The notes under the pieces were generated by a model, which was not told the origin of the DNA, ran no database searches, and was given only the letters and a program-made list of their open reading frames with translations. Below, piece after piece: positions 10,200 to 59,928 of a stretch of DNA of 64,000 bases. Source of the stretch: an uncultured Planctomycetales bacterium (lineage in GTDB: Bacteria; Omnitrophota; Gorgyraeia; Zapsychrales; JANLHA01); NCBI GenBank assembly GCA_964489065.1, contig CAZAXH010000001.1:21106-85105 (forward strand). The letters run 5' to 3'. Both the position numbers and the translations under genes were made by a program. The first letter of the stretch is position 1, and every line of letters begins with the position of its first letter.

Positions 10200-10200
10200 A

Positions 10201-10977: not shown

Positions 10978-11023
10978 CGGTCCGTCATCTCCTCCCCGGC
11001 TGAAATCCAAGGTTATCGTGAAT

Positions 11024-16043: not shown

Positions 16044-16078
16044 AAGATTATCCTTTAGTTCCCTGTCGAATAAGATGT

Positions 16079-24729: not shown

Positions 24730-24732
24730 AGC

Positions 24733-40607: not shown

Positions 40608-40795
40608 GTAATTTGGCAGTAAATAATATAAGAGAATCCCACACGGATGATTTAACATACACGAACCTACTAAATATATTTTCAGGTTATTATTCGGCGA
40701 AAAGAACGGATGACATGAAAACCCGTTTGTTTTTGAAACTTAACGAGGCAAAACCTTACATCTTCCTTAAAATTTATTATCCGGTGAAATAAGCA

Positions 40796-41451
40796 TCAGG
40801 ATTTTTTTCTCACAATGGCATCTTGGAATGCGTTGCCGAATTTATTATAATATATAAGTTCTCCCGGGAACAACTTCATTGTATCAGAGAGACCAATGTT
40901 GCCTACCACCCCCACATGTGACGGATCGATTTTTTCCCCCGGGGATCCCAAGATCAAATATCCTCCTGCAGCCAGAACCCGGCACCATTCTTTCGCCGCA
41001 CGGTAAGGATCTTGCGCATGATCTAAGAAATTTGAATAAACAATTTGAAATATCCCTATCCACTCCGAAGGAAGTTCATCAAAACTGACCGTCAGGACAT
41101 CGCGACGCTTCCCGGAACAATATGCTCAACACAACTCATCCCGAATGTTTCGATAGGCCTAAAACGGGAAGAGAAGGCGTATTTTCTTTGTTCAAGAAGT
41201 CTTATGCATGCGATCCTCAAAGGATTACTAAAGAAAACATTGCGGAACAAATCAATTTCTCTCCCGTTACGTGTCCCCAAACACAAAATCGGGCCTTTGA
41301 TAGGGATATTCCTCTCGCACCGGGTGATTACTTTCTTCCATTGCTGTACACACGCAACGCTCACCTTACAAAAAGCGAATTTTTTACGCGAGTGCGCAAT
41401 CTGAGTTGCAAAATACTCCGCACGAGACTGTTCTTGATTGTAAATATGCAT
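40796..41451 (-). pseudogene. Frameshifted class I SAM-dependent methyltransferase (paralog of the 46187-46858 methyltransferase)
   Basis: Minus-strand ORF 41451-41092 carries the N-terminal half with motif I ILCLGTRNGREIDLF and then stops. I hand-translated a different minus-strand frame from 41125 down to ~40798. It gives AYCSGKRRDVLTVSFDELPSEWIGIFQIVYSNFLDHAQDPYRAAKEWCRVLAAGGYLILGSPGE..., the C-terminal half of a methyltransferase. The two halves are joined only by a frameshift near 41095-41125. Confidence 0.5.
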
Positions 41452-41463
41452 ATTAAGTCCTCT

Positions 41464-42432
41464 TTAGATAAAATCCAAAACTTCCCGGAGTACTTTTTCA
41501 TATTGCCGGCACATGGCCGCGGCGTTAAACGGGAACGTCCGCATCCCGGGTTGAAGCCGCGCGTACTGGTCCCGCATTTTAAATAAAGCGACCGGGAAAG
41601 ACCCGGCCGTGTATTCAATCCCCGCCTCCCGGCACGTTTCCACGACCCCGCCCCCTTCGTTGATATACAACACCGGCAGCCCGCAACAGGCCCCTTCCAA
41701 CTGGTGCATCCCGCAAGATTCCCAACGCGCGGCCGTCAAATACACGTGATGAGACCGCAACTCCTGCGCCAGTTCGGTGCCGAAAAGTGGGGGCACAGTG
41801 CGCGTATACCGGAACTCGGTTCCAGCCGGATATCTACCGACATACGTGAACTGGAACTGGCCCTGCATCCAAGAATCCTCAAGCAGTTTATCAAAATAAC
41901 GGTAAACATCAATGCCTTTCATGGGATTATTCGACCAGTGATGCGTGACGATTTTCATCGGCTCCCCGTTGTGCCAAGGCCGATACCCCTGAGCATGAAA
42001 TATATTTTCATCCGGGCCGTTGCGCACCACGTAGGCAGGCACCAGGGGATCCAGTCCTTTCTGCCTGTAATATTCCCTCACCCATTCGCTGATAAACACA
42101 AAGGCATCAGCCACTTTATTCGCCTCCAGCCGCAGGCGGTCGATGTGGCGGGTGTTTTTTGCCCGGTCAGTTTCGTTAATCCGATGAATCACCTTGACAC
42201 GCGGATGAGTCTTTTTATATCTTTTGATGTCCTTGTGCGTGAACGTCCCGCTTCCGGGGTGAGGATTGATCAGGATAATCACATCCAGCCCTTCCTCTAA
42301 ATGATGGACAACGCGCGCGCCCTTCCCTTCAAAATATTTCTTAAACGAGATCAAGAATTGGTTCCCCCCGCCCCAGGGGCCGTCTGTAATCTCATTGCCT
42401 AAAGCGATCTTTAACTCTTTAAAAGTGTCCAT
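41464..42432 (-). CDS. Putative GT-B-fold glycosyltransferase (family unclear)
   Basis: 322 aa. The C-terminal GLPVLYINEGGGVVE resembles the GT1/GT4 donor-binding region. The N-terminus is not recognisable. Confidence 0.4.
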   Translation of the reverse strand: MDTFKELKIALGNEITDGPWGGGNQFLISFKKYFEGKGARVVHHLEEGLDVIILINPHPGSGTFTHKDIKRYKKTHPRVKVIHRINETDRAKNTRHIDRLRLEANKVADAFVFISEWVREYYRQKGLDPLVPAYVVRNGPDENIFHAQGYRPWHNGEPMKIVTHHWSNNPMKGIDVYRYFDKLLEDSWMQGQFQFTYVGRYPAGTEFRYTRTVPPLFGTELAQELRSHHVYLTAARWESCGMHQLEGACCGLPVLYINEGGGVVETCREAGIEYTAGSFPVALFKMRDQYARLQPGMRTFPFNAAAMCRQYEKVLREVLDFI

Positions 42433-42521: not shown

Positions 42522-44021
42522 TTAACTCATCTCCGGGACTTGCTTGCGGATGCGGTAATAATAAAAATCTAACAGATAAAACTCGAACGGAAGCCGGTAA
42601 AAAAGCCAGCGCAGGCGCAGTTTGGAAATGATCGTCAAGAAGAGGAGCCACAACCCTTTAAAAGGGTTTTTCCGGATTTTCTCCCAGACAAAAGCATAGG
42701 TGTTGGTAGCGGCTTTTGTACTGGTCCACAAATACTTATTGAAGGTCATGTTCTTAATCCAGGGAGGTTCGGCGCCGCCTAAGATTTCGGCGTGCTCCCA
42801 TTCCTCCAGCGTCTCCGGCATCTTGAGGCCGTAATCGCGCACGCACATATCGTACAATTCTCCCCCCGGATACGGCCGGTAATTTGCCGGGCCGTTAATA
42901 AAAGCCCGGGGCTGAATCCGCAAAATCTCCCGGATGAGCCTTAACGTCTGCATCTGTTCAGCTTTCGTTTCGGTGGGAATGCCGGTCATAAACGCGACCA
43001 AAGGGATGATGTTGAATTTCTTGGTCCGCCGGACAAAATTCAAGATATCCTCAACCTTGATGCCTTTACGCAAAAGATCCAGGATCCGTTGGGACCCCGA
43101 TTCCCCCCCGCATTGCAGTTTGTTGCACCCCGAGTCAGCCAGCAGCTTAAGATAATCATCACCGACATAGGACTCCCGCAGATATTCAACCCGCGGATTA
43201 GCGAGCCAGGTAATGCGGATGTTACGGTCCAGCAGGCCCTGCGCGATCTCCCGGACCTGCTGCTTGTTCGACATAAACACTTCATCCCGGAACCCGACGC
43301 GCTGGATATTAAATTCCCGGAATAAGAATTCAATCTCGTTCAAAACGTTTACGGGGTCCCGGTAACGCATCTTCCGATTCTTGGTCAGCACGTTAATACA
43401 AAACGCGCAGCGGTACGGGCAGCCCCGGCTGGCCTGCACCCGGATAATACTCCGCTTGACGACAGACAGCACTTCGGGTTTAAGCATGGACCAGTCCAGG
43501 ATCGGAAGTTTATTCACATCAACAAACGGCCGGGCCGGCGTCGTGACGACGCCCCCGTTTTCCTTAAAGCAAATCCCATCCACCTTATGCAGATCAAGCG
43601 TGCCTGATTCGATCCGGCGGACGATATCCAGCATGACATCTTCCCCTTCCCCGGGGACAACGATATCCGCCAGCGGGCTCCGCGCGGTTTGCTCCGTGAA
43701 CAGAATTGCGTGAGGCCCCCCCCAGATAATCTTAACCCGAGGATTCTTTTGCCGAAGCCGCCGCAGTTCCGGCAGAAGGTAACGGATATGGACGCTCATC
43801 GCATACACGCCCAAAAGATCCGTATCGACAATTTCCCGGTCCAGGATATCCTGATATTCCGGCTCTACGGAACAATCCACCAGCTTAACCCTATATCCTT
43901 GCTGTTTAAGGACGGTCGCAATATAGAGAAGGCCGGTCGGAGTATTATAGGTGCCGATCGTGCCGGTCGGCGGGTAAATCAACAAGACCTTGACCGTATC
44001 TTTCTTAATCGCTGGCTTCAA
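42522..44021 (-). CDS. B12-binding domain radical SAM protein (class B radical SAM)
   Basis: N-terminal Rossmann-like cobalamin-binding region (VLLIYPP...IIWGGPHA), then a CxxxCxxC cluster ASRGCPYRCAFCIN and a radical SAM TIM-barrel core. 499 aa. Confidence 0.8.
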   Translation of the reverse strand: MKPAIKKDTVKVLLIYPPTGTIGTYNTPTGLLYIATVLKQQGYRVKLVDCSVEPEYQDILDREIVDTDLLGVYAMSVHIRYLLPELRRLRQKNPRVKIIWGGPHAILFTEQTARSPLADIVVPGEGEDVMLDIVRRIESGTLDLHKVDGICFKENGGVVTTPARPFVDVNKLPILDWSMLKPEVLSVVKRSIIRVQASRGCPYRCAFCINVLTKNRKMRYRDPVNVLNEIEFLFREFNIQRVGFRDEVFMSNKQQVREIAQGLLDRNIRITWLANPRVEYLRESYVGDDYLKLLADSGCNKLQCGGESGSQRILDLLRKGIKVEDILNFVRRTKKFNIIPLVAFMTGIPTETKAEQMQTLRLIREILRIQPRAFINGPANYRPYPGGELYDMCVRDYGLKMPETLEEWEHAEILGGAEPPWIKNMTFNKYLWTSTKAATNTYAFVWEKIRKNPFKGLWLLFLTIISKLRLRWLFYRLPFEFYLLDFYYYRIRKQVPEMS

Positions 44022-44037
44022 ACCTATCCCCTTTCCT

Positions 44038-45381
44038 TTATCGATACGGGGTCTCTTCGTATAAACGTAAACCCTTTATCTCCTTATACGCCGATCCATA
44101 CCGTTTCTTAAACTGCGCGAAAAAATCCTGGACCGCTTGGTCACGCAAGTAACGATATTTTTCATTATCCAAACAGCGGACGATCCGATATTCCCGGGAA
44201 CGGCACAGCCGACAGATGAGGTTGGGATGCGAGGAATTCACCGTCTCCCTTAAAAACTGAAACACTTTATGATTCCAAATATCGTTAAAATTGTTGTCAG
44301 GGTCAGAAAAAAACTCCTTATAATTGAGCAATAACGGCTCCAGCCGGTTGCAAACCGAAACATAATGGGAATCCGGATAATCCAACGCGCCTTTAAACTG
44401 GATCAGGCGCCAAGGTTGCAGGCAACAGCGGTCGCCTTCCGATGTTAAATGGTCCAAGTCAACCGCATTGACATCCTCCATGGCATGATAATAACATGGC
44501 TGGGAAGGAGTCAATGTGACATTCCGCTCCCGGGCATAATGATAAATCTCGTCCAGCAGGTGGTTCCCCTCGGCCGGATCAAAGTAATATGACACGTCAC
44601 GGCTTAATTTGTTCCTTACATCATAGTAACTATTAACCGAAACGTAATCCAATTTGTGTTCGCAAGCGAAGTCAATAATCCTGCGCGTATTGTGGGCGTT
44701 AAGCCGGTTCAACATAAAATTAATGCCCAACCGGTTTCTTCGGCCCTTACGGGTGGTATAATAACGGATATTAGCCACGACCCGGTCAAAATCCCCGCCC
44801 AACAGCTTCTTATACGTTTCCTTGTCCGCGGCGTGCAGCGAAACAAGAATATTATCGAACCCGCAACGGATCAAAGCGTCGGCCGTCTCCGGCACCAAAA
44901 AAAAACCGTTGGTGTTCACGCTCAAATTCAACTGTGGATATTTTTCTTTAAGAGAGCTGGCGATCTCAACAAAATGGGGATTGATCATCGGCTCCCCCAC
45001 AGACCCATAAAAGCTCAAACTCGACACATGGCGAATCCATGCTTCGTATTTCTTAATCATATCCAGATCAATGATGTTTTTATATTTGACCGGGATTTTT
45101 TCATGCACGTGGTGAATCTCGCAAAAGGCGCAACGGTAATTGCAGATATCGGTGAGATTCAAGACCCCCTGGGTGGGCATGCAACCCGTGCAAGCCGTCC
45201 CGCGGCAGGCATCACGGATCGCGTGAACGGTCTTGAGGGGCCCGGGGTAGAACTTCTCAAACAAAGACGCGGATTTATACAAAACCTCATGCCCCGCCAC
45301 ATAGGCCATGACCCTTTTTTTATTCTCCGGGGATATTGGCGAGGTAAACCCTAACATAATGATTTCTCCATCACCTGACAT
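44038..45381 (-). CDS. Radical SAM protein with Cys-rich C-terminal (SPASM/twitch-like) domain
   Basis: CNYRCAFCE CxxxCxxC motif, then the GSVGEPMINP glycine-rich SAM motif. C-terminal cysteines CCLQPW...CNRL...CRLCRS are consistent with an auxiliary Fe-S domain. Confidence 0.7.
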   Translation of the reverse strand: MSGDGEIIMLGFTSPISPENKKRVMAYVAGHEVLYKSASLFEKFYPGPLKTVHAIRDACRGTACTGCMPTQGVLNLTDICNYRCAFCEIHHVHEKIPVKYKNIIDLDMIKKYEAWIRHVSSLSFYGSVGEPMINPHFVEIASSLKEKYPQLNLSVNTNGFFLVPETADALIRCGFDNILVSLHAADKETYKKLLGGDFDRVVANIRYYTTRKGRRNRLGINFMLNRLNAHNTRRIIDFACEHKLDYVSVNSYYDVRNKLSRDVSYYFDPAEGNHLLDEIYHYARERNVTLTPSQPCYYHAMEDVNAVDLDHLTSEGDRCCLQPWRLIQFKGALDYPDSHYVSVCNRLEPLLLNYKEFFSDPDNNFNDIWNHKVFQFLRETVNSSHPNLICRLCRSREYRIVRCLDNEKYRYLRDQAVQDFFAQFKKRYGSAYKEIKGLRLYEETPYR

Positions 45382-46190
45382 CCGGCGGTAGGACCCCCGT
45401 CATCCAGCAGCAAGTCTTTTATGAACACGATATCCCGATCGGCGTAGGAGTTCAGCAAGGCCTTAAACCAAGGCACTCCGCCGCGGATAATATTCCAATC
45501 ATGAAAAAGGAAGACGTTGGGATCTCCCACATAAGTCAAGCCATTATTCTTTCTCCCCGTAGGGGATAACGCTTCAGTGGAGGATAGATATCGAAGCCCG
45601 GATTCGCAGGCGAACCGTTCTGTGTCCGCAGTCCACACGTTCCCCGGAGGGATAAAGGTCACCACCTCGCAGCCGAAATACTCTTTCAAATACCGCTGGG
45701 ACACCCGCAGATGGTCCCGGTGAGTTTCCGCCGGAAGCCAATCCCAGAACTCCCGATGAGCGAGACGGTTAGGCTCCCGCCAGCGCGGCCGGTGCTGTCC
45801 AACGACACAATGGGTCAGCCCGTGATTGGCGATCTCCAAGACCCCCTGTGCAACTCCTTGTTTCAAAACCGCGGCGGCTTCCGGAAACTTCTGAAAAAAA
45901 GGGACCAGTTCTCCGGAGTACTCTACCCACGCGGCAGTCACGCCGACGGTCAATTTCGCGTTATGGGACACCAGCAGCTTTATAATCTGCTCCCACTCTC
46001 CGGCCCTTAATTCCCGATAGGGCAGGCGCTTCCGTAAGCCCGGGCAATATTTCATCCATAAAAAATTTGATATCCGGGTCACCGGCCAAACGCGGCCCAG
46101 GAACTTAACGGTATCCTTCCCGTAAATTTCAAACTTTTTCGTGGAAGCAAAGACATCATCCATGCGTAAAGCTATGCGTTCTTTGGTCAT
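45351..46190 (-). CDS. Polysaccharide deacetylase-like (NodB/CE4 superfamily) protein
   Basis: LRMDDV (a TFDDG-like Asp-Asp motif) and ANHGLTHC (HxxxH-like). 279 aa. Assignment is tentative. Confidence 0.45.
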   Translation of the reverse strand: MTKERIALRMDDVFASTKKFEIYGKDTVKFLGRVWPVTRISNFLWMKYCPGLRKRLPYRELRAGEWEQIIKLLVSHNAKLTVGVTAAWVEYSGELVPFFQKFPEAAAVLKQGVAQGVLEIANHGLTHCVVGQHRPRWREPNRLAHREFWDWLPAETHRDHLRVSQRYLKEYFGCEVVTFIPPGNVWTADTERFACESGLRYLSSTEALSPTGRKNNGLTYVGDPNVFLFHDWNIIRGGVPWFKALLNSYADRDIVFIKDLLLDDGGPTAGCQVMEKSLC

Positions 46191-46858
46191 AATCCTTTTC
46201 GCAAACGTGTCTCACACACAAACAAATACCCCATGGGGAACCGGGAGTTCTGGTCCCTCCGATCCAATCCAAGGACTAATAATTTCGTACAATACAAAAA
46301 CGGCAACATAAAAAGCTTCCCCCATCGCCCGTAAGTGTTTCTGACCTTTTCAAAAAAGAAATCCCATATGACCGTGTACCGTCCGCCCAGGAGGATCCGT
46401 TCCCGCACATAAAAATGAACCTCAAGGAAAATCCGCCAGGATTTTTCCGTATACCGGACATTATCTACATCCCCATGCACAGGATCAAGGAAAGGCACGG
46501 AAAAAAGGAAAACCCCATCGGGCTTCAAAACCCTGGCTATTTCTTTTAGAACCCGCGGTGTCTCTAAAACATATTCCATGACCTCAAAAGAAACAACCGC
46601 ATCAAAAACTTCAGGCCCAAACGGCAGCGCCCGCGCGTCCGCCGCGATCACGTCTTTCCCCTTTTCCGGCTTAAGGTCAACGGCAATCATGTCCCGCGCC
46701 CCTGGGAAAAAAGAATCGTAACGGCGGTTACGCGACCCCACATCCAAAACGCGCCCCCGGACCGCAGGCGCACACCGACGGATCGCCTCGTTGAGCAACT
46801 GGCGATGCAGGGAACAGCCGTAAAAACCGCCGATTTTCTTTTGAATGACCTTCAACAT
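46187..46858 (-). CDS. Class I SAM-dependent methyltransferase
   Basis: Motif I VLDVGSRNRRYDSFF, motifs DAVVSFEVMEYV and LKPDGVFLF. The start is taken at MLKVIQ (46858). Confidence 0.75.
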   Translation of the reverse strand: MLKVIQKKIGGFYGCSLHRQLLNEAIRRCAPAVRGRVLDVGSRNRRYDSFFPGARDMIAVDLKPEKGKDVIAADARALPFGPEVFDAVVSFEVMEYVLETPRVLKEIARVLKPDGVFLFSVPFLDPVHGDVDNVRYTEKSWRIFLEVHFYVRERILLGGRYTVIWDFFFEKVRNTYGRWGKLFMLPFLYCTKLLVLGLDRRDQNSRFPMGYLFVCETRLRKGL

Positions 46859-46878
46859 ACAATTTTGGCAACCAGCTT

Positions 46879-47835
46879 TCAAGTCAGAGACACGGCTTTC
46901 GGGTGTGGCCAAGGCGCCGTATTCTTAAGTTTTCTAGTGATGGCGGCAACGACCTCTTCAACTTGAATAGACGCCAGGCACTTCTTATGAAAAGGGCATT
47001 GAACCCTTAATCCACAAGGAGCGCAATCAACATGATGGTAAATATTAATATTATTGTGGTAGGCCGTTAGTTCAAGGGGCGTGTATCCGCCGTATAAAAT
47101 AACACTGTCTATGCCCACGGCCTGCGCGGCGTGCATCAGCCCGCCGTCCGTACCCACAAAAAGCTTCGCGCCTTTCAACAGGCAGGCCGTATCACGGAAG
47201 GAACCCAACCCCCGGAAATCCACCACGCGTTTCAACAAGGCCTTCCCCGGCAACCCCACCTGGACAACCGTGATCAATTCGGAAACCTGATCCACCACCG
47301 CCTGCCATCTTTCAAAAAACCAGCTCTTATTGGGCGTGTAATCATCTTTGGCGTGTGGCTCGAGCGCGATGAAATCATCAAGCCCCTCCATCCAGCGTGC
47401 CACCCGCCGGAGTTCTTCTTCCGTAAAAAACAACTCCGGCCGGGGAGGCGAAGTCACATCGCAACCGAAACGCTTACACAGCATGGTGATCGCGTTCCCG
47501 GATTTAAAGACAAGCTTCTCCGGCGTGCAGGAAACGGCATAGGAGTTTTGATTATCGTTACAGTCTATAATAATGGCCCTCTTTCTCTGTCGCCGGTCTA
47601 AGGCGTCCGCCGGGATAAGATGCGGATTGTTCGTGAAGATTTCATCCAGAGGTTTGGTTTCCCAAAACAGCCTTTTATTGACCTTATGGAAAACCGGATT
47701 CTGTTTCAAGCCCACCGGAGCACACCGCTCCAAGGGAGTCGGGATGGTGTGTTTAAAAATAACCGGCCGGGCGGGATAGCGCCGTTTTAATTCCCCTATC
47801 ACCGCCGTCCAGATTAAAGATCCGCCGTAGCCCAT
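46879..47835 (-). CDS. Glycosyltransferase family 9 (heptosyltransferase-like)
   Basis: C-terminal GTDGGLMHAAQAVGIDSVILYGG is the GT9 donor-site signature. 318 aa. Confidence 0.75.
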   Translation of the reverse strand: MGYGGSLIWTAVIGELKRRYPARPVIFKHTIPTPLERCAPVGLKQNPVFHKVNKRLFWETKPLDEIFTNNPHLIPADALDRRQRKRAIIIDCNDNQNSYAVSCTPEKLVFKSGNAITMLCKRFGCDVTSPPRPELFFTEEELRRVARWMEGLDDFIALEPHAKDDYTPNKSWFFERWQAVVDQVSELITVVQVGLPGKALLKRVVDFRGLGSFRDTACLLKGAKLFVGTDGGLMHAAQAVGIDSVILYGGYTPLELTAYHNNINIYHHVDCAPCGLRVQCPFHKKCLASIQVEEVVAAITRKLKNTAPWPHPKAVSLT

Positions 47836-47868
47836 AAATATCTCTTCCTTAATTTAATGGAATCCATT

Positions 47869-48735
47869 TCACACAATCACGATTTCGCGGTCCCCACTGA
47901 ACACCGGCCCCGGGATTTTCCGGCACCCATCCCTGGGCAGGCAGATCATATTCGTCTGTTCGCGCCGGCAGTCATACGCGAAGCGTTTAAACTGTTCCAG
48001 CAGAAAAGGCAGCCCCTGCCCGGCCGGATAATACATCGGATGGATTTCAAAAACGATCACCGGCCGGTGCTTCTCTAAATACCCCGCCGCCGCGAAATCG
48101 GCGAAAACGTCCCGTTCGAATCCTTCTATATCCATAAAAATATAATCCGGGACAAAATTAATGTCCCGCAAAAATTCAGTCACCTTAATCGCCTTGACCC
48201 CGGTCATCCCCCCTGTCGGGCCTTCTTGTTGTTTCATACGACGAATAGCGTCATAAGGGTGTTTTTCATGATCATAAAAATGCACCTGCCGGGCCTCCGA
48301 ACTAATAAAAGCGTTATAAATCCGCACATTCTTAAGCCCGTTTAAAGCCACATTCTCCGAAAGAATTCGGAAATTATTGGGAGTCCCTTCGATAGAAACA
48401 ACCTGCCCGGACGCTCCCGCGCAGAAGGCCATGATGGTCGTAAAATAGCCGTAACATCCTCCCAATTCCAACACCCGGGCTCCGGGATGGACCAACGCTT
48501 TGATGATAGCGGTCGTGGTGGGTTCGCGGACGCCTTCAATGCGCTCCACGATAGGATGGTCCAACTTATAATCCTGGAACGACATACGGAACCGCATGTC
48601 ATCGACCGTAATATTAAAAATGTGGCCCGGCGGGTATTTTGAATATTTCCAAATACCATAACGTTGCGTCCCAAGCCTCATCAAGCGGCGGGCACGTCTC
48701 CCGACGGCCTTTTTTATTTGCGCTAAAGCTTTCAT
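47869..48735 (-). CDS. FkbM-family methyltransferase
   Basis: LELGGCYGYFT...VVSIEGTPNNF...IFMDIEGFE matches the FkbM domain pattern. The start is probably MKALAQ (48735). Confidence 0.7.
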   Translation of the reverse strand: MKALAQIKKAVGRRARRLMRLGTQRYGIWKYSKYPPGHIFNITVDDMRFRMSFQDYKLDHPIVERIEGVREPTTTAIIKALVHPGARVLELGGCYGYFTTIMAFCAGASGQVVSIEGTPNNFRILSENVALNGLKNVRIYNAFISSEARQVHFYDHEKHPYDAIRRMKQQEGPTGGMTGVKAIKVTEFLRDINFVPDYIFMDIEGFERDVFADFAAAGYLEKHRPVIVFEIHPMYYPAGQGLPFLLEQFKRFAYDCRREQTNMICLPRDGCRKIPGPVFSGDREIVIV

Positions 48736-48739
48736 AAAA

Positions 48740-50626
48740 TCACACCTCAACCAGATCTTTCTGCATCTCAAATTGCAGTTGATAAAGCTTCCGGTACAAG
48801 GGGCTGATCGCAAGCAACTCGGTATGCCGGCCCATAGCCTCGATCCGCCCTTTATTCAAAACCACAATCTTGTCAGCGTGCAGGATCGTGGAAAGCCGGT
48901 GGGCGATGACCACGGCGGTGGAACATTCCAGCACGCTGTCAATGGCTTTCTGCACCTGTTGTTCCGACTGCGTGTCCAGAGCGCTGGTCGCCTCATCGAA
49001 AATCAGGATGTCCGGCTTGGCCACAATCGCCCGGGCGATGGCGATTCGTTGCCGCTGTCCGCCGGAGAGACGCACCCCCCGGTCCCCGATAAACGTATGG
49101 TAACCATCGGGCAAATCACAAATAAATTCGTGGGCATTGGCGAGCTTGGCCGCGGCGATAACATCACTCTGGGAAACCCCCTCCCGGCCGAAGACAATGT
49201 TGTTCGCCACGGTGTCATTGAACAACAAACTTTCCTGGGGCACAACTCCAAAAATTTTCCGGTAAGGAGATATCTGGACATCTTTTAAATCAACCCCATC
49301 AATCGTGATCGTACCCTGCTGCGGGTCATAAAAACGCAGCAACAGATCTGTTAAAGTTGACTTACCCGCTCCGCTGGGGCCGACAAAAGCAATGACCTCC
49401 CCTTTCTTAAGCTCAAAATTGATCCGATCAAGGGAAAAGTCTTCGTTGGGCAAATAGCGGAACAGAACATCCCGTACCTGAATCCTGTCTTCAAAGTCTC
49501 TCTTCATAATGGTGCCATCGGGCACTTGGGAGCGTTCCTTGAACAATTCGTCCAGACGCTCATAAGAAGCTAAGAGCGCTTGAGTCCAAGTCAGGCACAC
49601 GGCAAATTTATTCACGGGTTCAATCAAAAGCCGGCCGACGTAAATATAGAGCAAAAACCCCTGCAGGGAGAGGCTCCCTTTCATAAGCTGAAAGGCGGCG
49701 ACCAGGAATATTCCCACAAACGCCGTGGCATCAAGAAACTCGCGGGCATAGGGCTCAACTTGACGGATAAGGCCTTCCCTAAAATCAGCCTTGCTCACTT
49801 CCGCCAGGTCATGGTCAAGCTGACGCAGTTCAAAGGACTCGACCCCGAAAGATTTTATCGCACGGATGTTCGTCATCATTTCCTGCAAAGTAGACGTAAA
49901 ATCCGCAATCCTGTCGAAGAAACACCGGGTCGTCCGGCGAATAGGTCGTTTGATGACTTCCGTCAGCCCGAACTGTAGCATGATCATCCCGAAAGCACAC
50001 AGCGTCATCCAGACACTTGTACTGATGAGATACATACTGTACATGGCAATCAAAATTCCATGATGGATATAGCCTCGCACAAGCGGGCCCAAGCCCTGAC
50101 CGGTGTTCTGGGCGTCCTGGACGACGCGGGAAATCAACTCCCCGGATTTCTGCCGGTTGTAAAACCCGATATTCAGGCTCAAAAGGTGCTGAAGGACGTC
50201 TTTTCGTAGTTTTTCCGTTGAGCGAACACGGATCCAGCGAGTCATCACCAACGCCAGATAATTGATAAGGGCCGACAAAAAAACGCTCACCAGAAAAAGC
50301 GACAGCATAAAAATCAGCATATTCCAGAAATCAGTCCCTTCAAAAGGCACGAACCGGGCCAACAACGCTTTAACCTTGGTGCCAATGTTATTCAGGTTGA
50401 AAACATTGGTCTGTGGCAATGCCTCCGCCGCTTCCATGGCCGCCCCGCCCTTATAGTCCGAGATAAGCTGCACGACCCCCGACACAATAACCGGCTGGAC
50501 CACCGTAAAAAAATTGCCCACAAGAGTAATTACGATCAGCGCGCAGATCTGTTTCCAGAGCGGACGGGCGTAGTCCTTCAACAATTTGGCAAAAGACACC
50601 TTCCGGATAAATTTTTTTTTCTTCAT
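48740..50626 (-). CDS. ABC transporter, fused permease/ATPase (type I exporter, MsbA-like)
   Basis: 628 aa. Six transmembrane helices with Walker A GPSGAGKST, signature LSGGQRQRIAIARAI and Walker B ILIFDEATSALD. Confidence 0.85.
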   Translation of the reverse strand: MKKKKFIRKVSFAKLLKDYARPLWKQICALIVITLVGNFFTVVQPVIVSGVVQLISDYKGGAAMEAAEALPQTNVFNLNNIGTKVKALLARFVPFEGTDFWNMLIFMLSLFLVSVFLSALINYLALVMTRWIRVRSTEKLRKDVLQHLLSLNIGFYNRQKSGELISRVVQDAQNTGQGLGPLVRGYIHHGILIAMYSMYLISTSVWMTLCAFGMIMLQFGLTEVIKRPIRRTTRCFFDRIADFTSTLQEMMTNIRAIKSFGVESFELRQLDHDLAEVSKADFREGLIRQVEPYAREFLDATAFVGIFLVAAFQLMKGSLSLQGFLLYIYVGRLLIEPVNKFAVCLTWTQALLASYERLDELFKERSQVPDGTIMKRDFEDRIQVRDVLFRYLPNEDFSLDRINFELKKGEVIAFVGPSGAGKSTLTDLLLRFYDPQQGTITIDGVDLKDVQISPYRKIFGVVPQESLLFNDTVANNIVFGREGVSQSDVIAAAKLANAHEFICDLPDGYHTFIGDRGVRLSGGQRQRIAIARAIVAKPDILIFDEATSALDTQSEQQVQKAIDSVLECSTAVVIAHRLSTILHADKIVVLNKGRIEAMGRHTELLAISPLYRKLYQLQFEMQKDLVEV

Positions 50627-50634: not shown

Positions 50635-51249
50635 CTATTTATGTTTATCTGTCACCGAATTCCCGTGCTTCACATAATTATACAGCGGCACAGGCAAATG
50701 ATATATTTTATCCTTATCAATCCGTTTGAAAAGGTCTGTATCTTCAAATATTTTCTTCTCTGAATTATAGGACCCAATAATCTCCAGATACGATGTGCGG
50801 AACATCAGCCCGCAGGCAATCCCGTTCTCCTGAAAGGATTCTTTGGATAAAATGCGTTCCTCATTGTCGGTGATAAAATAATCGCAGGATACCGCCACGT
50901 ATTTCGGGTTAAATTTCAGAAAATTATACAGCATATACAAAAACGGCGGCTGGACATAATCGTCCGAATCCACCCGGATGAAATATTTCCCCCGGGAATT
51001 GGCCACTCCGATCTGGGCACTGGCGCCGATTCCCAGGTTTTCTTCATTTTTAATAATCCGGATATCCCCCGCCTTAATGAATGTGTCCAGCGCCTTAATG
51101 GAGTCATCCGTGCTACAGTCATCCACCACCACGATCTCATAATGGGATCTATCCAGGTCCTGATTGAGAAGTGACCGGATACACCGGCGGATCAAAGTGC
51201 CGTAATTATGATTCACCACAATCACAGAGATATCAATAAGTCGCATCAT
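50635..51249 (-). CDS. Glycosyltransferase family 2
   Basis: ISVIVVNHNYGTLIRRCIRSLLNQ...EIVVVDDCSTD...VDSDD. 204 aa. Confidence 0.8.
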   Translation of the reverse strand: MMRLIDISVIVVNHNYGTLIRRCIRSLLNQDLDRSHYEIVVVDDCSTDDSIKALDTFIKAGDIRIIKNEENLGIGASAQIGVANSRGKYFIRVDSDDYVQPPFLYMLYNFLKFNPKYVAVSCDYFITDNEERILSKESFQENGIACGLMFRTSYLEIIGSYNSEKKIFEDTDLFKRIDKDKIYHLPVPLYNYVKHGNSVTDKHK

Positions 51250-51276
51250 AGCACTCCTTAAAAAGAATCGGCCGTG

Positions 51277-51999
51277 TCAATCCTCGGCCACATTAATAAA
51301 CTTTTCCATCTCCCGGGACTGCTGGCAGAGGGTGCGCAATTCTTCCGGCGTGGCGCTGCAGACGTGATCCGGCCCCACCAGCCCCTTATTAAGAGTAAAG
51401 TGCTTTTCGATAATCCTGGCACCCCGGGCCACGGCCACCAGAGCCGCCTCAATGCCGATCGTGTGATCGCTGAAGCCGTCGTAAGGAGTGGCTTTAAACG
51501 AAACCGGCAAATGAATATCCTTATACTCCGCGGGATATTTCGCCACGCAATAAAGGTATTTCGCTTTATCATAGGCGTAGGGGACATCATTATCCTCCCA
51601 GAAACCCAATGAAATAAAAACCTCTTTGCCGGTCGCGAATATTTTTTTACACAACTTTTTCTCCTGCACGGTGCGGCTCGCGATTTTATAACGTTTCACT
51701 TGCAGCCGCTCCATCCATTCAAAGCGATCTTCATCAAATACCGAAGCCATAAACTCGATGCCTTCTTCGTCACACCAGGTCTTAAGCCGCCGGGCGTCCT
51801 CAAACCCAAACTGCACGGTCAGGGCAAACCGGTAATTTTCCTCGTCCGGATAGCTCCCCTGCGGCCCGAAGATCTTCGCCGGGTCGTAAAACTGGAACTT
51901 GGCGACATCGGCCCCGCACTGTTTGGCCTGTTTGATCAACTCGTGGGCCAGATGAATACTGCCGTTATGGTTAATTCCAATTTCCGCGATGATAATCAT
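51277..51999 (-). CDS. NeuB-family (N-acetylneuraminate synthase-like) TIM-barrel protein lacking the C-terminal SAF domain
   Basis: MIIIAEIGINHNGSIHLAHELIKQAKQCGADVAKFQ is the NeuB/PseI N-terminal signature. At 240 aa it is ~100 aa shorter than full NeuB homologs. Confidence 0.7.
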   Translation of the reverse strand: MIIIAEIGINHNGSIHLAHELIKQAKQCGADVAKFQFYDPAKIFGPQGSYPDEENYRFALTVQFGFEDARRLKTWCDEEGIEFMASVFDEDRFEWMERLQVKRYKIASRTVQEKKLCKKIFATGKEVFISLGFWEDNDVPYAYDKAKYLYCVAKYPAEYKDIHLPVSFKATPYDGFSDHTIGIEAALVAVARGARIIEKHFTLNKGLVGPDHVCSATPEELRTLCQQSREMEKFINVAED

Positions 52000-52085
52000 A
52001 TTTGTTACCCCTTATTACAAAAATCACTAACCCCATTATTTATATAATTTACACTGAAAACCTTCTATTCCCATCATTTTCTTTT

Positions 52086-52784
52086 CTAAAGCACTTTTCT
52101 GTCGCCTGCCGGAGCATTAATCACATAAAGATAATAAAAAGGGCCTAAAGATGCGGCATGCAACCACAAGGGTTTCTTGGTCCAAGGAACATTCATTTTA
52201 TCGAGTATCTTATCGTAATTCCAAATATACGAGTGCCGGGCAAATTTCTTGTCCGGCCGCTCCAACCCTTTCTTAACCTCTTCCCTCGTTTTGCCAGAAA
52301 CATCACCGTGAATGCCTTCAATAAACGGTTCAAGCAATAATGTCATATTTGAAACACGTACAAGTTCCTGCATCGTCCATTCCACAACGCTTCCATCCGG
52401 GATATGATCCAGCACCGATAAAGTAAATGCCACATCAAAACTCTTCTCGCCAAACTGCCGCAGGCTTTGCTCATCCCCCACAATCCCGCGGAATGTCGGA
52501 TATTGTCCCGACAAGGTCAAAACACACTCATTGACTTCTATGCCAACAGTATGAACAGCCGGAAGTCTATCCATAAAATATTTCAAATTTCCACCGCTGG
52601 CACACCCGAGTTCCAAAATATTGGAAAGAGATTGGGGATCCCGGGACTGGATCACTTTTTCATATATAATATGGGCATTACGCGCTGGGATTGTTAAATT
52701 TTGCCAATAGGTTTTGGCATCTTTAACTTTCCTGTGCATATAGGCTTTTTTAAGCCCCTCGAAGACCTGCATGCCCGCCTCCAT
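52086..52784 (-). CDS. Class I SAM-dependent methyltransferase
   Basis: Motif I LELGCASGGNLKYF and post-II FDVAFTLSVLDHIPD. Confidence 0.75.
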   Translation of the reverse strand: MEAGMQVFEGLKKAYMHRKVKDAKTYWQNLTIPARNAHIIYEKVIQSRDPQSLSNILELGCASGGNLKYFMDRLPAVHTVGIEVNECVLTLSGQYPTFRGIVGDEQSLRQFGEKSFDVAFTLSVLDHIPDGSVVEWTMQELVRVSNMTLLLEPFIEGIHGDVSGKTREEVKKGLERPDKKFARHSYIWNYDKILDKMNVPWTKKPLWLHAASLGPFYYLYVINAPAGDRKVL

Positions 52785-52829
52785 TATAAAAGATATGAAT
52801 CTATAATAGCCCTAATATCCTGAATATTT

Positions 52830-54062
52830 TCACACGAGACGTTTATATTGGATTTCTTTCGCCTCAAAAAAATCCGTGGCTAACATATTCGTATTTAAAT
52901 CAATGTTCTTGCTGACCTTATGAATTTTAATATAATCCCCGGCTGACCGGACCTCAATGTGATTCCGAAAATATGCGTTCAGGTACCGGCACATCCCTGC
53001 CGGGTCATCTTCCCGTTTATAATTCACGAAATTTTTCCTGACACGATGCATGCCGTCAAAAAACCATTTATCAAAACCCAGCCAAGGGGGAAGAAACCCC
53101 CAAATCGGCTCTAGGGCTGTTCCGGAAAAAGGAATGTCCAGAACGTCATAAAGCTGGCGTGCTTCCAGTTTCGCCGAAAATTTTTCCAAAAACGTCCGGC
53201 TGACCAGATGCTGGCAGGAACAGCCGAACCACTCTAAATCATCATCTTCATGAAAAATAATTTTGTCTTTCTCTATAAATTCCGGGACGACTTTTTTCAA
53301 AGAACGCCGGTACGTGTTTTCATAAATGACCTTACCGGATATCGGGAACTCCCGCAAATGACGTAAAGAGCGCAGGCTCTGCCGCAGCCTTTTAAAAACC
53401 GGGTCAAAGACATCCGGGACATGATCCTGGGTGACAAAAGAACAATCCTGGCTCCAGGAAGAAAAAAGTCTTTTAAATTCCGGGTCCCGGCAGAAGACGT
53501 CGTAAACTTCCCTAATTCTCTCATTATGATAAAAATCCAGTTCGGTAGGGTCAGGGTCCCGTGTATTGTAGTTTAAGAAAAGCCCCCGGGAGATCCGCCG
53601 TTTTTCATGGCCGGACGACAGAAAATGGATCCCCTTCTCTTTTAAGAAAGCCAGCGCTGTAGATAAAACATTGGCGCGGGTTAAAAGGGTGCCTTCCTGG
53701 ATCATAAAAGTATAATCGTAGGCCCGCCATTTTCCCGTGCGGATGAATTTATACCACGCGCCGGAATCCAAGGCATGATCATTTTCAAAATGCATCTCCG
53801 TCACGGCTTTGCCTTTCACCTGCCGAAGAATATTTAAGACGCGATCATCCGCCGGGCTAAGCTGAACGTTAATGCCGTATTTTTCCGCCAGGCGGAAATA
53901 CGCCGCGTAAGATGTCTTCTTAAGACACTGGCCGTCCCCGTCTTGAAAAAGGGAAAAAATATCATAGTCCTGAAAATCCTGCAAAGCCAAAGTCAACAGC
54001 GTTGACATGATGAGCCAGGGTTTATGATGACAGCATAACGCTATGGCCACGCGTGCGCTCAT
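52830..54062 (-). CDS. Hypothetical protein (possible novel glycosyltransferase)
   Basis: I recognise no motifs. ATGA overlap with the upstream gene. The start is taken at MSARVAIAL. Confidence 0.4.
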   Translation of the reverse strand: MSARVAIALCCHHKPWLIMSTLLTLALQDFQDYDIFSLFQDGDGQCLKKTSYAAYFRLAEKYGINVQLSPADDRVLNILRQVKGKAVTEMHFENDHALDSGAWYKFIRTGKWRAYDYTFMIQEGTLLTRANVLSTALAFLKEKGIHFLSSGHEKRRISRGLFLNYNTRDPDPTELDFYHNERIREVYDVFCRDPEFKRLFSSWSQDCSFVTQDHVPDVFDPVFKRLRQSLRSLRHLREFPISGKVIYENTYRRSLKKVVPEFIEKDKIIFHEDDDLEWFGCSCQHLVSRTFLEKFSAKLEARQLYDVLDIPFSGTALEPIWGFLPPWLGFDKWFFDGMHRVRKNFVNYKREDDPAGMCRYLNAYFRNHIEVRSAGDYIKIHKVSKNIDLNTNMLATDFFEAKEIQYKRLV

Positions 54063-55417
54063 GCGGCCTGCCTCTCTTTCGATTTTTTCCGGACCGCGGT
54101 TTTCACCGCATCCCAGACGCGCCGGCTGCACAGGCCGTCGCCATACCCCATATAATTCCGGATAAATTCCTGATTCTTCTCTCGGTCCATCTCAAACCTC
54201 TTCAAATGCATTTGCGGAAGCCGCTCAATCACATCCTCAATCTCCCAGGTTTCGATCACCCCGGGATAATTAAACTGCGACCCTTCCTCGGCGGAAAACC
54301 AGAAACGATGCGCCTCGTTGATAAAAAATTCCTTAGGGACGTTAATATTCAGGCAATACACCCCCGCGTAAATAGCGGCCAAAGAGGCGAAACTGTAATA
54401 CATGACGCACATACGACTGACAGTCAGTAATTCTTTCAGCATGGGCGGATTCTGCCGTTTTTCATCATCCCAGACCACCAAATCGGCCTGTTCTTTGACA
54501 TAGTCCGCGACCGGGAATTTCATCCTCGGTTTCACCACAAGATACAGATTATTCCGGGAGCAAAACTGCCGGATCGATTCAAAAACTTTCGCTTCATTCA
54601 TGCCCCGCGCCAAAAACCGGCAGCTTAAGGGGTCCTGTATAATACGCAACAAATTCCAACTTTTTTGAACAAAATCTCTAATGATATAATTTTTTTTATC
54701 ATGCGCATACGAACCGTCCGCAGCCATCGCTGTATTTGCGTAAAGCCCGCAAAAGGCTCTCTCCCATGCGGAGGAACGGTTACGGTTGCAATACGGGAAC
54801 GGCAGATAAAGAAGGACACCTTTCCCTGATGGCAACCCGTATTTCACCCGCACGGCGTCCGGATCAATGGTTTTAAACGCGTCAAACTCCGCATTCCCGG
54901 AGACCAGAATACGGGTCTTATCCGGATAAAGATAGTCCGTATATTCCGGGTGAAAATTTTTCAGGAACGCCTCCCCTTTTTCCGCGTAACTCTCGCTGTG
55001 GACAAGAAAAAGTTCTTTATTCCGCCGTTTTTTCAAAAAACCCAATTTCGGTATATAAAAAAAGTTGTCCGGTCCCGTCATCAGCGTCACCCAGGTGAAA
55101 GGAAATTCATCTAAAGACGCATCCGGGAGAGAAAATTTAAAGGGACAAATAGAAACGACCACGTCAATATTTCTTCCCTCTCTTAGTTTCTTTTCCAAAT
55201 CCTCCGGCCCCTCGAAAACGATCCCCGGCGGCCGCCCCAATCCCGGGAATTCAGGGATATGCTCGGTATCCGGGAAAGAAAAACTTTTGCTCCCCAAACG
55301 GGGAACGCTGTAGTCGTGCCAGCATTCCACACCATAGCCCCGCCGCAACGCCTCCTGAATGACCGGCGTGTAATAACGGTAATAATTCGTCCTATAAACT
55401 AAAAATACGACCCGCAT
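54059..55417 (-). CDS. Hypothetical protein (GT-B-like / capsule-synthesis-like?)
   Basis: 452 aa, soluble. Weak resemblance to TagF/Capsule_synth-type two-domain transferases. No secure motif. Confidence 0.4.
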   Translation of the reverse strand: MRVVFLVYRTNYYRYYTPVIQEALRRGYGVECWHDYSVPRLGSKSFSFPDTEHIPEFPGLGRPPGIVFEGPEDLEKKLREGRNIDVVVSICPFKFSLPDASLDEFPFTWVTLMTGPDNFFYIPKLGFLKKRRNKELFLVHSESYAEKGEAFLKNFHPEYTDYLYPDKTRILVSGNAEFDAFKTIDPDAVRVKYGLPSGKGVLLYLPFPYCNRNRSSAWERAFCGLYANTAMAADGSYAHDKKNYIIRDFVQKSWNLLRIIQDPLSCRFLARGMNEAKVFESIRQFCSRNNLYLVVKPRMKFPVADYVKEQADLVVWDDEKRQNPPMLKELLTVSRMCVMYYSFASLAAIYAGVYCLNINVPKEFFINEAHRFWFSAEEGSQFNYPGVIETWEIEDVIERLPQMHLKRFEMDREKNQEFIRNYMGYGDGLCSRRVWDAVKTAVRKKSKERQAA

Positions 55418-56078
55418 GATCCCTCCACATGTTTTGTGCGATCAAAAAATCTTCTTCCGTATCAATATCAAACAACTCCAGTTTATCATTCAACTCCACC
55501 AGATGAACTTCCTGCCAGTCCCAGTAACGGCCGTGCTGAAAAAAATAGTCCTTGGGAAAAAAATACAAAGCGTGGGCGAACTCATAGACCGGCTCCACGG
55601 TCTTGGTATTGATCGTCTGAAGCGACAAAGAAAAATTCAAAGGGTTCCGCTTCATGTCGAAATAAAAATTATGGCGTTTCACGACGCCAAACGCCGATTC
55701 CCAATTATGGTCACAGCATTGTTCCAGGAAATCAGCAATGGTTTTGACTTTTAAGAAGGGCAAACACCCGTTGATAATCAAAAAATATTGATAAGGAAGC
55801 TCCTTTAAAAAAGACAAAATCTCCGTGATGGGGCCGTCGATCATCACCGACTCCCGGCTGCGCTGGACAAACGGCACGCCGTGCGCCCGGCATTTGTCCG
55901 CGAAATCCTGTTCGTACCCGGCGAAAAACGTGTTGTCCCCCAAGGCCCGCAGCTTTTTCAGCACGATATCGGTGAGGGTCGTGTCCCCGAACGGCCGGGT
56001 CATCTTTTGAGGACAGCGCTGGCTCTGTTTCCGGCCGAAGGAAAAGACCCCGATTGTTTGCCGCTCAACGCGCGCCAT
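55392..56078 (-). CDS. Cytidylyltransferase-family protein (acylneuraminate cytidylyltransferase-like)
   Basis: N-terminal IGVFSFGRKQSQRCPQKMTRPFGDTTL resembles the ArGGSKgipkKN.r.l.g.pL motif of CMP-sugar synthetases. 228 aa. Confidence 0.5.
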   Translation of the reverse strand: MARVERQTIGVFSFGRKQSQRCPQKMTRPFGDTTLTDIVLKKLRALGDNTFFAGYEQDFADKCRAHGVPFVQRSRESVMIDGPITEILSFLKELPYQYFLIINGCLPFLKVKTIADFLEQCCDHNWESAFGVVKRHNFYFDMKRNPLNFSLSLQTINTKTVEPVYEFAHALYFFPKDYFFQHGRYWDWQEVHLVELNDKLELFDIDTEEDFLIAQNMWRDHAGRIFSL

Positions 56079-59919: not shown

Positions 59920-59928
59920 GGAGCCTCG

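Follow-up and report, generated by a model that had tools for sequence, protein, structure and literature searches.

An ABC exporter kept with nonulosonic-acid genes: a putative glycan translocase subfamily in uncultured Omnitrophota

The present analysis concerns a 64,000-nucleotide (nt) stretch of DNA from an uncultured bacterium of the Omnitrophota (contig CAZAXH010000001.1 of assembly GCA_964489065.1, positions 21,106 to 85,105), referred to throughout as the window, and, within it, the gene of an ATP-binding cassette (ABC) exporter that lies on the minus strand at 48740-50626. The exporter is best explained as a member of a distinct subfamily of ABCB-like half-transporters of gene clusters predicted to make nonulosonic acids, of the pseudaminic acid type and of the NeuB type. 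As for its function, the balance tips slightly towards a dedicated translocase, similar to PglK and Wzk, for a polyprenyl-linked glycan bearing nonulosonic acids, its substrate, its lipid carrier, the way in which it transports and the acceptor all being inferred. The original prediction, made from the letters of the window and a list of its open reading frames (ORFs), had placed the exporter at the end of a seven-gene assembly module (42522-50626) in which a GT9-type enzyme would extend an acceptor of the lipid A-Kdo (3-deoxy-D-manno-octulosonic acid) type, to be flipped by an MsbA-like protein rather than by Wzx. The results set out below indicate that the exporter belongs with the nonulosonic-acid genes upstream of it, and that the GT9/lipid A reasoning is to be dropped.

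The exporter and its upstream partners

The exporter gene and the genes upstream of it, up to the right end of the window, are the following.

48740-50626, minus strand: fused ABC half-transporter, 628 amino acids (ABC_membrane 98.2 bits, ABC_tran 119.3 bits)
50635-51246, minus strand: short soluble GT2 glycosyltransferase, 203 amino acids (DSD at residues 93-95)
51277-51999, minus strand: short NeuB-type synthase, 240 amino acids, no SAF domain (nearer the NeuB/NnaB model than PseI)
52086-52772, minus strand: S-adenosylmethionine (SAM) methyltransferase (weak match to a pseudaminic-acid-associated methylase model)
52830-54062, minus strand: member of an uncharacterized 410-residue family ('unk433'), steady partner of the exporter
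54059-55417, minus strand: GT-B fold protein, 452 amino acids ('unk452'; AlphaFold2 (AF2) model with a predicted local distance difference test score (pLDDT) of 93.1)
55392-56078, minus strand: cytidylyltransferase-like protein (NTP_transf_3/CTP_transf_3), steady partner of the exporter
56065-57027, minus strand: Maf/MptE-like protein, 320 amino acids (weak PF01973 match, E 0.0034), steady partner of the exporter
57024-58076, minus strand: pseudaminic acid synthase PseI (TIGR03586, 455.9 bits against a cut-off of 340.25)
58089-63190, minus strand: rest of the pseudaminic-acid-type pathway, namely GNAT (PseH-like), PIG-L deacetylase, formyltransferase, GT28-like (PseG-like), PseF-like cytidylyltransferase and B12 radical SAM proteins
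63187-64000, minus strand: DegT/PseC-type aminotransferase, truncated where the window stops (385 amino acids when complete, as on contig L008)

Neighbourhoods of seven exporter relatives (42-69% identity) were compared with the proteins of the window by tblastn. The 410-residue family, the Maf-like protein and the cytidylyltransferase-like protein were found beside the exporter in all seven, and a NeuB-type match in all save L006; the short GT2 gene was directly upstream in five, and four of these five also had an orthologue-level short NeuB (69-93% identical). The genes downstream of the exporter were far more variable, the GT9-like gene being found in one relative out of seven, the CE4 deacetylase and the radical SAM pair in two each, and the FkbM gene in three or four. 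A second test was independent of the exporter, being a metagenome scan anchored on the 410-residue family, and gave 22 loci of at least 12 kb. The exporter was encoded on the same strand within 10 kb in 18 of them, along with a NeuB-type synthase (19 loci), DegT (18), the Maf-like protein (15) and the cytidylyltransferase-like protein (15); CE4 was found in nine and the GT9-like gene in one, and neither FkbM nor the radical SAM gene starting at 44038 in any. Among these relatives and loci, only L003 and L092 contain the GT9-like gene.

The same neighbourhood, alike in strand and spacing, surrounds exporters of 42-81% identity, and the TagF-like GT-B protein too is among its conserved upstream members. 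All loci inspected place the exporter homologue within a glycan cluster, as in the locus L010 of a Methylomirabilia genome (46% identity) and in P0095 (44%), where the exporter lies in NeuB/CTP_transf_3/DegT clusters; this fits the general idea, already present in the original prediction, that the ABC protein serves to export or flip an intermediate of glycan synthesis. The closest named homologues of the exporter (81-91% identity) belong to metagenome-assembled genomes of Candidatus Omnitrophota, as do the named homologues of the 452- and 410-residue proteins to that phylum. Given the GT9, FkbM and radical SAM genes, which are confined to the nearest relatives, and the steady upstream ones, the evolutionary unit extends from the exporter upstream into the nonulosonic-acid genes (50635-57027), and the tailoring genes downstream of it (42522-48735) are lineage-specific, so that the module boundary initially drawn around 42522-50626 does not hold.

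With regard to the individual partners, the length of the short NeuB is conserved in L002, L003, L005 and L091. The short GT2 and the short NeuB are 66-97% identical in relatives whose exporters share only 42-69%, and the pair is unusually constrained. Together with the cytidylyltransferase-like protein encoded at 55392-56078, the pair suggests that a second sugar of the nonulosonic acid type is made besides pseudaminic acid.

The 410-residue family gave no Pfam or PDB match in single-sequence or profile searches, and its profile comparison with the short GT2 yielded nothing. Its 203 homologue clusters are all named hypothetical, and its sequence is rich in His and Cys residues, with H12, H13, H214, H271 and H339 invariant and several cysteines nearly so. 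For the 452-residue protein, of which 23 homologues were found (one with a Glyphos_transf Pfam domain), the best solved neighbours of the model are the CDP-glycerol-dependent teichoic acid polymerases TagF/TarL (Foldseek; E 6e-8, TM-score approximately 0.5). It may reasonably be regarded as a candidate CMP-sugar-dependent transferase, but as no more than a candidate. The notion that the 452- and 410-residue proteins are paralogues was ruled out on comparison. No PDB sequence match was obtained for the Maf-like protein, whose orthologues in related loci are flagged as MptE-like.

A loop signature and a coherent clade

Between its first (TM1, helix 12-59) and second (TM2, helix 100-150) transmembrane (TM) segments the exporter contains a family-specific periplasmic insert of approximately 40 residues, as shown by alignment and by the AF2 model. 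In the insert a disordered stretch leads into a short amphipathic helix (residues 81-92); P45, L78 and G82 are invariant, N79 is nearly so, and the exporter of the window reads FNLNNIG at residues 76-82. The corresponding loop motif, [FYLIM][DNESTQ]LNxxG, was present in all 30 context-linked ABC half-transporters and in none of 72 other ABCB half-transporters, the latter being controls collected by a genome scan on generic nucleotide-binding-domain motifs and mostly unrelated to the exporter (at most 43% identity). Of the top 120 homologues, 96 carry the motif as well, and those that lack it mostly share 44% identity or less. In a neighbour-joining tree all 32 context-linked exporters formed one clade, with the 72 others outside; the tree, having neither bootstrap nor labelled references, therefore shows the cohesion of the group only. 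Three basic residues in TM4-TM6, namely K226, R295 and R332, are conserved across the subfamily.

The proposed subfamily may be defined by the loop motif, here in the narrower form [FL][DNS]LNxxG (with the same counts of 30 of 30 and 0 of 72), combined with a neighbourhood that includes the 410-residue family, the Maf-like protein and the cytidylyltransferase-like protein. The exporter of the window has both, with the partner genes at 52830-57027.

Fold and family relations of the exporter

The exporter has the layout of a type IV (ABCB-like) half-transporter, with a six-helix ABC_membrane domain fused to a C-terminal ABC_tran domain. The ATPase motifs (residue 416 for Walker A, 520 for LSGGQ, 540-545 for Walker B/DE and 576 for the H-loop His) are intact, and invariant over 56 homologues, and the AF2 model (pLDDT 83.6; predicted template modelling score, pTM, 0.75) shows six long TM helices, the first starting at residue 12. 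Comparison of the model with solved structures by Foldseek gave TM-scores of 0.7-0.83 at 23-30% identity with MsbA, Sav1866, TM287/288, TmrAB, PCAT1 and HlyB, the top match being Pseudomonas aeruginosa MsbA (9bd6, TM-score 0.79-0.85); BmrCD is also a near match, beside Sav1866 and TM287/288. Similar values for different exporters were also obtained by a PDB sequence search (Sav1866, 298 bits; HlyB, 280 bits; P. aeruginosa MsbA, 280 bits; PCAT1, 271-275 bits). The exporter fell below the cut-off of every curated equivalog model of NCBIfam, the scores being as follows.

HepA, NF045513 (best-scoring curated family): 404.6 bits, cut-off 725
MsbA-related model: 398.5 bits, cut-off 780
MsbA, TIGR02203: 390.3 bits, cut-off 602
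MsbA, NF008381: 327.3 bits, cut-off 867
HlyB: 340 bits, cut-off 725.6
NHLP bacteriocin exporter: 316 bits, cut-off 709
Glucan exporters NdvA/ChvA: 295.8 and 239.3 bits
Further peptide/type I secretion exporter model: 249 bits, cut-off 524
PglK, NF050066: 234.7 bits, cut-off 1000

Thus, the initial description of the protein as MsbA-like is correct only at the level of the fold: the cut-offs for MsbA, HepA and PglK are all missed and the identity is 23-30% to MsbA, Sav1866, HlyB, PCAT1 and TmrAB alike.

The structural nearness of Sav1866, TM287/288 and BmrCD could be taken to mean that the gene encodes an unrelated drug or metabolite efflux pump lying in the island by chance. This explanation, already disfavoured, is very improbable, because the neighbourhood is conserved at 42-81% exporter identity, the gene is tightly spaced between its neighbours (8 nt after the short GT2 gene and 4 nt before the FkbM gene), and the exporters form one clade with a loop motif of their own.

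The tailoring genes downstream of the exporter

By Pfam and NCBIfam annotation, the block at 42522-50626 consists of seven genuine, tightly packed minus-strand ORFs, and the gene list of the original prediction was borne out both in coordinates and in families. Besides the exporter, the block comprises the following genes.

42522-44021, minus strand: B12-binding radical SAM enzyme (B12-binding 62.7 bits, Radical_SAM 74.8 bits)
44038-45357/45381, minus strand: radical SAM enzyme with a SPASM/twitch-like C-terminal Cys cluster (Radical_SAM 71.3 bits; CxxxCxxC at residue 72)
45351-46190, minus strand: CE4 (NodB-type) deacetylase (Polysacc_deac_1, 32.8 bits against a cut-off of 23.1)
46187-46882/46912, minus strand: class I SAM methyltransferase (Methyltransf_11, 52.1 bits)
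46879-47835, minus strand: GT-B glycosyltransferase with a GT9-like C-terminal domain (Glyco_transf_9, PF01075, 42.4 bits against a cut-off of 22)
47869-48735, minus strand: FkbM-family SAM methyltransferase (TIGR01444, 72 bits against 37.7), starting 4 nt past the stop codon of the ABC gene

In the gene calls of L001, an identical public contig, the junctions from the ABC gene downstream measure +4, +33, -4, -4, -7 and +16 nt, and the short GT2 gene stops 8 nt ahead of the ABC start. The seven genes are an operon-like block. To call them mostly overlapping, as was done initially, is slightly generous, since three of the six junctions overlap and the other three are gaps of at most 33 nt. A promoter and terminator scan of the 40-58 kb region listed sites almost wholly inside coding sequence. 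No TM segments are predicted in the enzymes of the block, and neither a signal peptide nor a TM segment in the CE4 deacetylase, so that their location in the cytoplasm, as originally proposed, is reasonable.

The product of 42522-44021 is probably a tailoring enzyme of the C-methyltransferase type. Two further B12-binding radical SAM genes are present in the island at 61820-63190 and, just past the window, at L008:2051-3496, and these three are joined by the one with the SPASM/twitch-like cluster; some of them adjoin DegT and dehydratase genes. The occurrence of these genes in one sugar island suggests radical C-methylation or a similar tailoring of sugars, for which we know of no documentation in nonulosonic-acid clusters.

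The GT9 match of 46879-47835 is restricted to its C-terminal half (profile positions 101-237 of 247). The protein scored 26.8, 34.6, 31.8 and 32.1 bits with the equivalog models of heptosyltransferases I, II and III and RfaQ, all below the respective cut-offs of 185, 135, 170 and 467, and solved heptosyltransferases were matched at E values of approximately 0.5 in the PDB search. As judged by these profiles, it is not a heptosyltransferase equivalog. The case for its acting on a lipid A-Kdo-type acceptor is weak, in view of the half-domain match, the missed cut-offs and the presence of the gene in only one of seven and one of 22 related loci.

The corresponding role of the exporter, namely that of an MsbA-type flippase of a lipid A/Kdo-like glycolipid extended by the GT9 enzyme, is considered very improbable, even though the MsbA and MsbA-related models are among its top NCBIfam matches (390 and 398 bits), P. 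aeruginosa MsbA is its top Foldseek match, the GT9-domain gene is found 900 nt downstream of it and nonulosonic acids are chemical cousins of Kdo. The exporter shares with MsbA, the lipid A-core flippase, the fold and the size class, but its scores are below the MsbA cut-offs (602 and 867), its identity to MsbA (26-29%) does not exceed that to Sav1866, HlyB and PCAT1, and the GT9-like gene has the distribution and the scores just described. Furthermore, the window is devoid of lpx, kds and waa genes, the surroundings of the exporter being formed by nonulosonic-acid biosynthesis genes instead of lipid A/Kdo ones, and the exporter diverges fast yet stays in nonulosonic-acid clusters, unlike a housekeeping MsbA.

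Next to the block, at 40805-41451 on the minus strand, the orthologue of a 230-residue gene without Pfam match (L003:19226-19918) is split over two frames near 41107-41113, which reflects either a pseudogene with a frameshift or a fault in the assembly. Its surroundings (40658-41464, 805 nt) are the only sizeable apparent gap of the island.

The radical SAM pair, the methyltransferases, the glycosyltransferase and the exporter might also be read as a cluster for a ribosomally synthesized and post-translationally modified peptide (RiPP) or a glycocin, in which the ABC protein would export a peptide. The B12 radical SAM enzyme weakly matches RiPP C-methyltransferase models, the second radical SAM enzyme weakly matches SPASM maturase models, and PCAT1 and HlyB are among the structural neighbours of the exporter. 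However, no C39 peptidase domain was detected in the exporter by Pfam, its TM1 starting as early as residue 12, and no HlyD-type membrane-fusion gene in the window; a bacteriocin or type I secretion role is therefore not indicated. There is also no room for a precursor gene, given junctions of at most 33 nt and a sole gap occupied by the frameshifted 230-residue gene; the radical SAM pair accompanies the exporter in two of the seven relatives, and the gene at 44038 is found in none of the 22 loci; and the neighbours are all sugar-nucleotide enzymes. A peptide product is thus scarcely credible. In line with this, a grouping of the exporter with peptide or bacteriocin exporters, which would have counted against the original prediction, is not indicated, the bacteriocin and HlyB models scoring below those of HepA and MsbA, albeit by small margins.

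The wider island and the search for a Wzx flippase

The window is transcribed almost wholly on the minus strand. Annotation with Pfam and NCBIfam of every minus-strand ORF of at least 150 amino acids delimited a glycan island that runs from 17371 to beyond 64000 and is bordered at 15276-17269 by the phosphoglycerate kinase and triosephosphate isomerase genes. Its membrane proteins, in addition to the exporter, are the following.

17371-18852 and 19902-21341, minus strand: two Wzy_C membrane proteins (ligase/polymerase/O-oligosaccharyltransferase type), whose genes flank that of a GDP-mannose dehydratase
21214-22623, minus strand: polyprenyl glycosylphosphotransferase, which initiates lipid-linked synthesis (TIGR03025, 427.8 bits against a cut-off of 295.55)
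33173-35650, minus strand: YfhO-type GT-C-like membrane protein, 825 amino acids, 13 TM segments (the YfhO match covers the last 65 residues only)
35682-37256, minus strand: weak Wzy_C-like protein, 524 amino acids, 10 TM segments (below the gathering score)

The YfhO-type and the weak Wzy_C-like proteins are divergent membrane enzymes of uncertain role, whose substrates would be lipid-linked sugars already flipped to the periplasmic face. The phosphoglycosyltransferase encoded at 21214-22623 weakly matches HepC. Downstream in the island there are also more glycosyltransferases and methyltransferases, an asparagine synthase, a UDP-N-acetylglucosamine 2-epimerase and a WecG/TagA protein.

A six-frame hydropathy scan of the whole window detected nine ORFs with at least four TM segments, those of the island being the phosphoglycosyltransferase, the two Wzy_C proteins, the weak Wzy_C-like protein, the YfhO-type protein and the ABC exporter. 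None of the polytopic ORFs of the window matched a Wzx-type family (PF01943, PF13440, PF14667 or MurJ), even at E values up to 10, and no Wzx gene was present in the approximately 3.8 kb past the right end of the window that are available on Logan contig L008 (same sequence); the only genes there are the remainder of DegT, one more for a B12 radical SAM enzyme and two for dehydratases/epimerases. A plus-strand ORF of 492 residues (24220-25698), considered as a hidden Wzx, turned out to be an Arg-rich antisense artefact with no TM segments. The claim that the island contains no Wzx is thus confirmed for the sequence available, namely the window and the approximately 3.8 kb past its right end.

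That an ABC exporter is used rather than Wzx holds for the window but is not general. In one related lineage a Polysacc_synt (Wzx-type) gene is located approximately 8.5 kb from the same gene set (L118:3-1487 and L151:3-1487). A GT-C enzyme of the PMT_2 family is encoded in another locus (L107:18935-20239; 64.1 bits against a cut-off of 26.1), and a weak, sub-threshold PMT_2 match was seen in a further one (L126:3243-4742; 19.8 bits); enzymes of this family use flipped polyprenyl phosphate-sugars. The exporter can therefore co-exist both with Wzx and with enzymes that use polyprenyl phosphate-sugars. In 17 of 31 related loci it is the sole ORF with at least four predicted TM segments.

Annotation of the window also gave no Wzm/Wzt, Wza/Wzc, KpsD/E or membrane-fusion protein and no tRNA or Rfam match, and flagellin or flagellar genes were absent both from the window and from nine Pfam-annotated related loci. 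Outside the island the window encodes a protein of 794 residues (6884-9268, minus strand) with approximately eight N-terminal TM segments without Pfam match and a C-terminal TPR array, which adjoins an Opp/Dpp-type peptide ABC importer (9333-14857), along with housekeeping genes for an SMC protein of 1098 residues (329-3625, minus strand) and a trans-2-enoyl-CoA reductase (4364-5575, minus strand).

Proposed role of the exporter

In the pathway that is slightly favoured, soluble enzymes would assemble and tailor a nonulosonic-acid glycan on polyprenyl phosphate or pyrophosphate at the cytoplasmic face of the membrane. Among them would be the enzymes of the pseudaminic acid pathway, the short NeuB acting with its cytidylyltransferase, the Maf-like protein, the TagF-like GT-B protein and the short GT2, joined in this lineage by the GT9-like transferase and by methyltransferases, the CE4 deacetylase and radical SAM enzymes. 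The exporter, as a homodimer, would then move the head group to the periplasmic face in an ATP-driven step like that of PglK and Wzk, and the flipped intermediate would be used by Wzy_C-type ligases/oligosaccharyltransferases or by GT-C enzymes such as YfhO.

This role is supported by the fact that the phosphoglycosyltransferase, the three Wzy_C-type proteins and YfhO of the island need a flipped lipid-linked substrate and that the window encodes no other flippase or export machinery, by the conserved neighbourhood in which the exporter is often the only polytopic protein, by the PMT_2 enzyme of L107 (and the weak hit in L126), by the precedent of Wzk and PglK, and by the conservation of K226, R295 and R332. 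The carrier would bear either an oligosaccharide, as polyprenyl pyrophosphate-oligosaccharide, or a single sugar, as polyprenyl phosphate-monosaccharide, and the short GT2 next to the exporter, like the GT-C enzymes, hints at the latter option.

Several observations weigh against a translocase of this kind. The exporter carries no sequence or structural feature specific to a substrate, lipid, peptide and drug exporters are not told apart by its sequence and fold, and it falls short of PglK orthology (234.7 bits, where 1000 would be required). The 10-kb flanks of its relatives contained no homologue of the phosphoglycosyltransferase, Wzy_C or YfhO proteins of the window, although small PglC-/WecA-type initiators would escape this test, and the coupling to a lipid carrier is therefore seen in this window only. 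The presence of a Wzx-type gene in L118/L151 implies that the exporter need not be the sole flippase, and enzymes of the Maf type classically glycosylate flagellin in the cytoplasm, with no need of a flippase.

The product moved by the exporter could also be a nonulosonic-acid compound not linked to polyprenyl, that is, a glycolipid built on diacylglycerol or lyso-phospholipid, or a soluble oligo- or polysaccharide as with exporters of the HepA or NdvA/ChvA type, in which case the conserved periplasmic loop would pass it to an unknown partner. This is rather unlikely, but retains appreciable weight, for HepA is the top curated family (with NdvA/ChvA at 295.8 and 239.3 bits), homologues of the phosphoglycosyltransferase and of the ligases are lacking within 10 kb of the exporter in the relatives, and the TagF-like GT-B protein recalls polymerases that build polymers on lipid anchors. 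On the other hand, the window encodes the phosphoglycosyltransferase, the Wzy_C proteins and YfhO but no Wza/Wzc, KpsD/E or membrane-fusion partners, and all the family scores are far under the cut-offs. As to HepA itself, which belongs to the cyanobacterial heterocyst envelope pathway (the NCBIfam label is heterocyst-formation ABC transporter), it is an ABCB-type exporter of a polysaccharide pathway that works with a HepC-type phosphoglycosyltransferase. The likeness lies in the score of 404.6 bits; the exporter nevertheless stays under the cut-off of 725 and differs from HepA in taxonomy and in the chemistry of the sugars.

A broader reading, possible but to be taken as tentative, is that the exporter and its partners form a previously undescribed mobile set that assembles and exports a nonulosonic-acid glycoconjugate, with the loop binding or handing over the acidic head group, and that ABC exporters were recruited to this task independently of PglK and Wzk and alongside Wzx. 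The set is spread over Omnitrophota and other uncultured lineages, including the Methylomirabilia genome, and over marine, soil and sludge metagenomes.

Comparison with known systems

Of the known systems, those based on PglK and Wzk offer the closest parallel to the proposed role. The O antigen of Helicobacter pylori is translocated by Wzk, a homologue of PglK, in place of Wzx (PMC2841628), and PglK of Campylobacter jejuni flips its lipid-linked oligosaccharide by way of an arginine-lined, outward-facing cavity (PMC5395944), to whose arginines the conserved basic residues in the TM helices of the exporter may be compared. As with Wzk and PglK, a single gene encodes a type IV half-transporter with fused transmembrane and nucleotide-binding domains in a glycan pathway without Wzx; in those pathways the flipped glycan goes to a Wzy_C-type ligase or to an oligosaccharyltransferase (PMC2841628), a fate that is here proposed from the genes alone. 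The exporter differs from PglK in that it scores lower on the PglK model than on the MsbA and HepA models. It has a short helix in the periplasmic TM1-TM2 loop, where PglK also has an external helix, but its 40-residue insert has an invariant motif of its own, and its partners are nonulosonic-acid genes, Maf-like genes and two unannotated families, the function in the present case being putative.

Wzx, of the MOP family, and Wzm-Wzt, of the ABC-2 type, fill the same functional slot, that is, the passage of lipid-linked glycans across the inner membrane. They have unrelated folds and neither is present in the window, the Wzx-type gene beside the gene set in L118/L151 being the case already mentioned. 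A further parallel is provided by flagellin glycosylation islands, in which pseudaminic or legionaminic acid genes are combined with Maf: the island shares with them PseI, the PseF-, PseG- and PseH-like proteins, DegT, the pseudaminic-acid-associated methylase-like protein and the Maf/MptE-like protein. It differs from them in the lack of flagellar genes in the window and in the nine related loci, and in the shortness of the Maf-like protein (320 residues). Moreover, the exporter, the phosphoglycosyltransferase, the Wzy_C proteins and YfhO point to an extracytoplasmic use of the glycan, unlike that of flagellin islands. Nothing usable was found in the literature that links Omnitrophota to pseudaminic acid, lipopolysaccharide or lipid A.

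Implications

The exporter appears to represent a subfamily of ABCB-type glycan translocases that seems to stand apart from PglK and is marked by a loop signature and partner genes not shared with it, for a kind of mechanism that has precedent. To our knowledge, the flipping of lipid-linked glycans is established for only a few ABC half-transporters, with PglK and Wzk as the experimentally supported precedents; if the proposed role is correct, a separate clade, recognisable from sequence and wired to sialic-acid-like pathways, would widen the use of ABC proteins for glycan flipping. The loop motif may serve as a simple marker for exporters that are now automatically labelled 'MsbA', and the two unannotated families, of 410 and 452 residues, are likely parts of the assembly of nonulosonic-acid glycans. 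For the organism, the association of exporter and partners suggests how the uncultured cells of Omnitrophota may decorate their surface.

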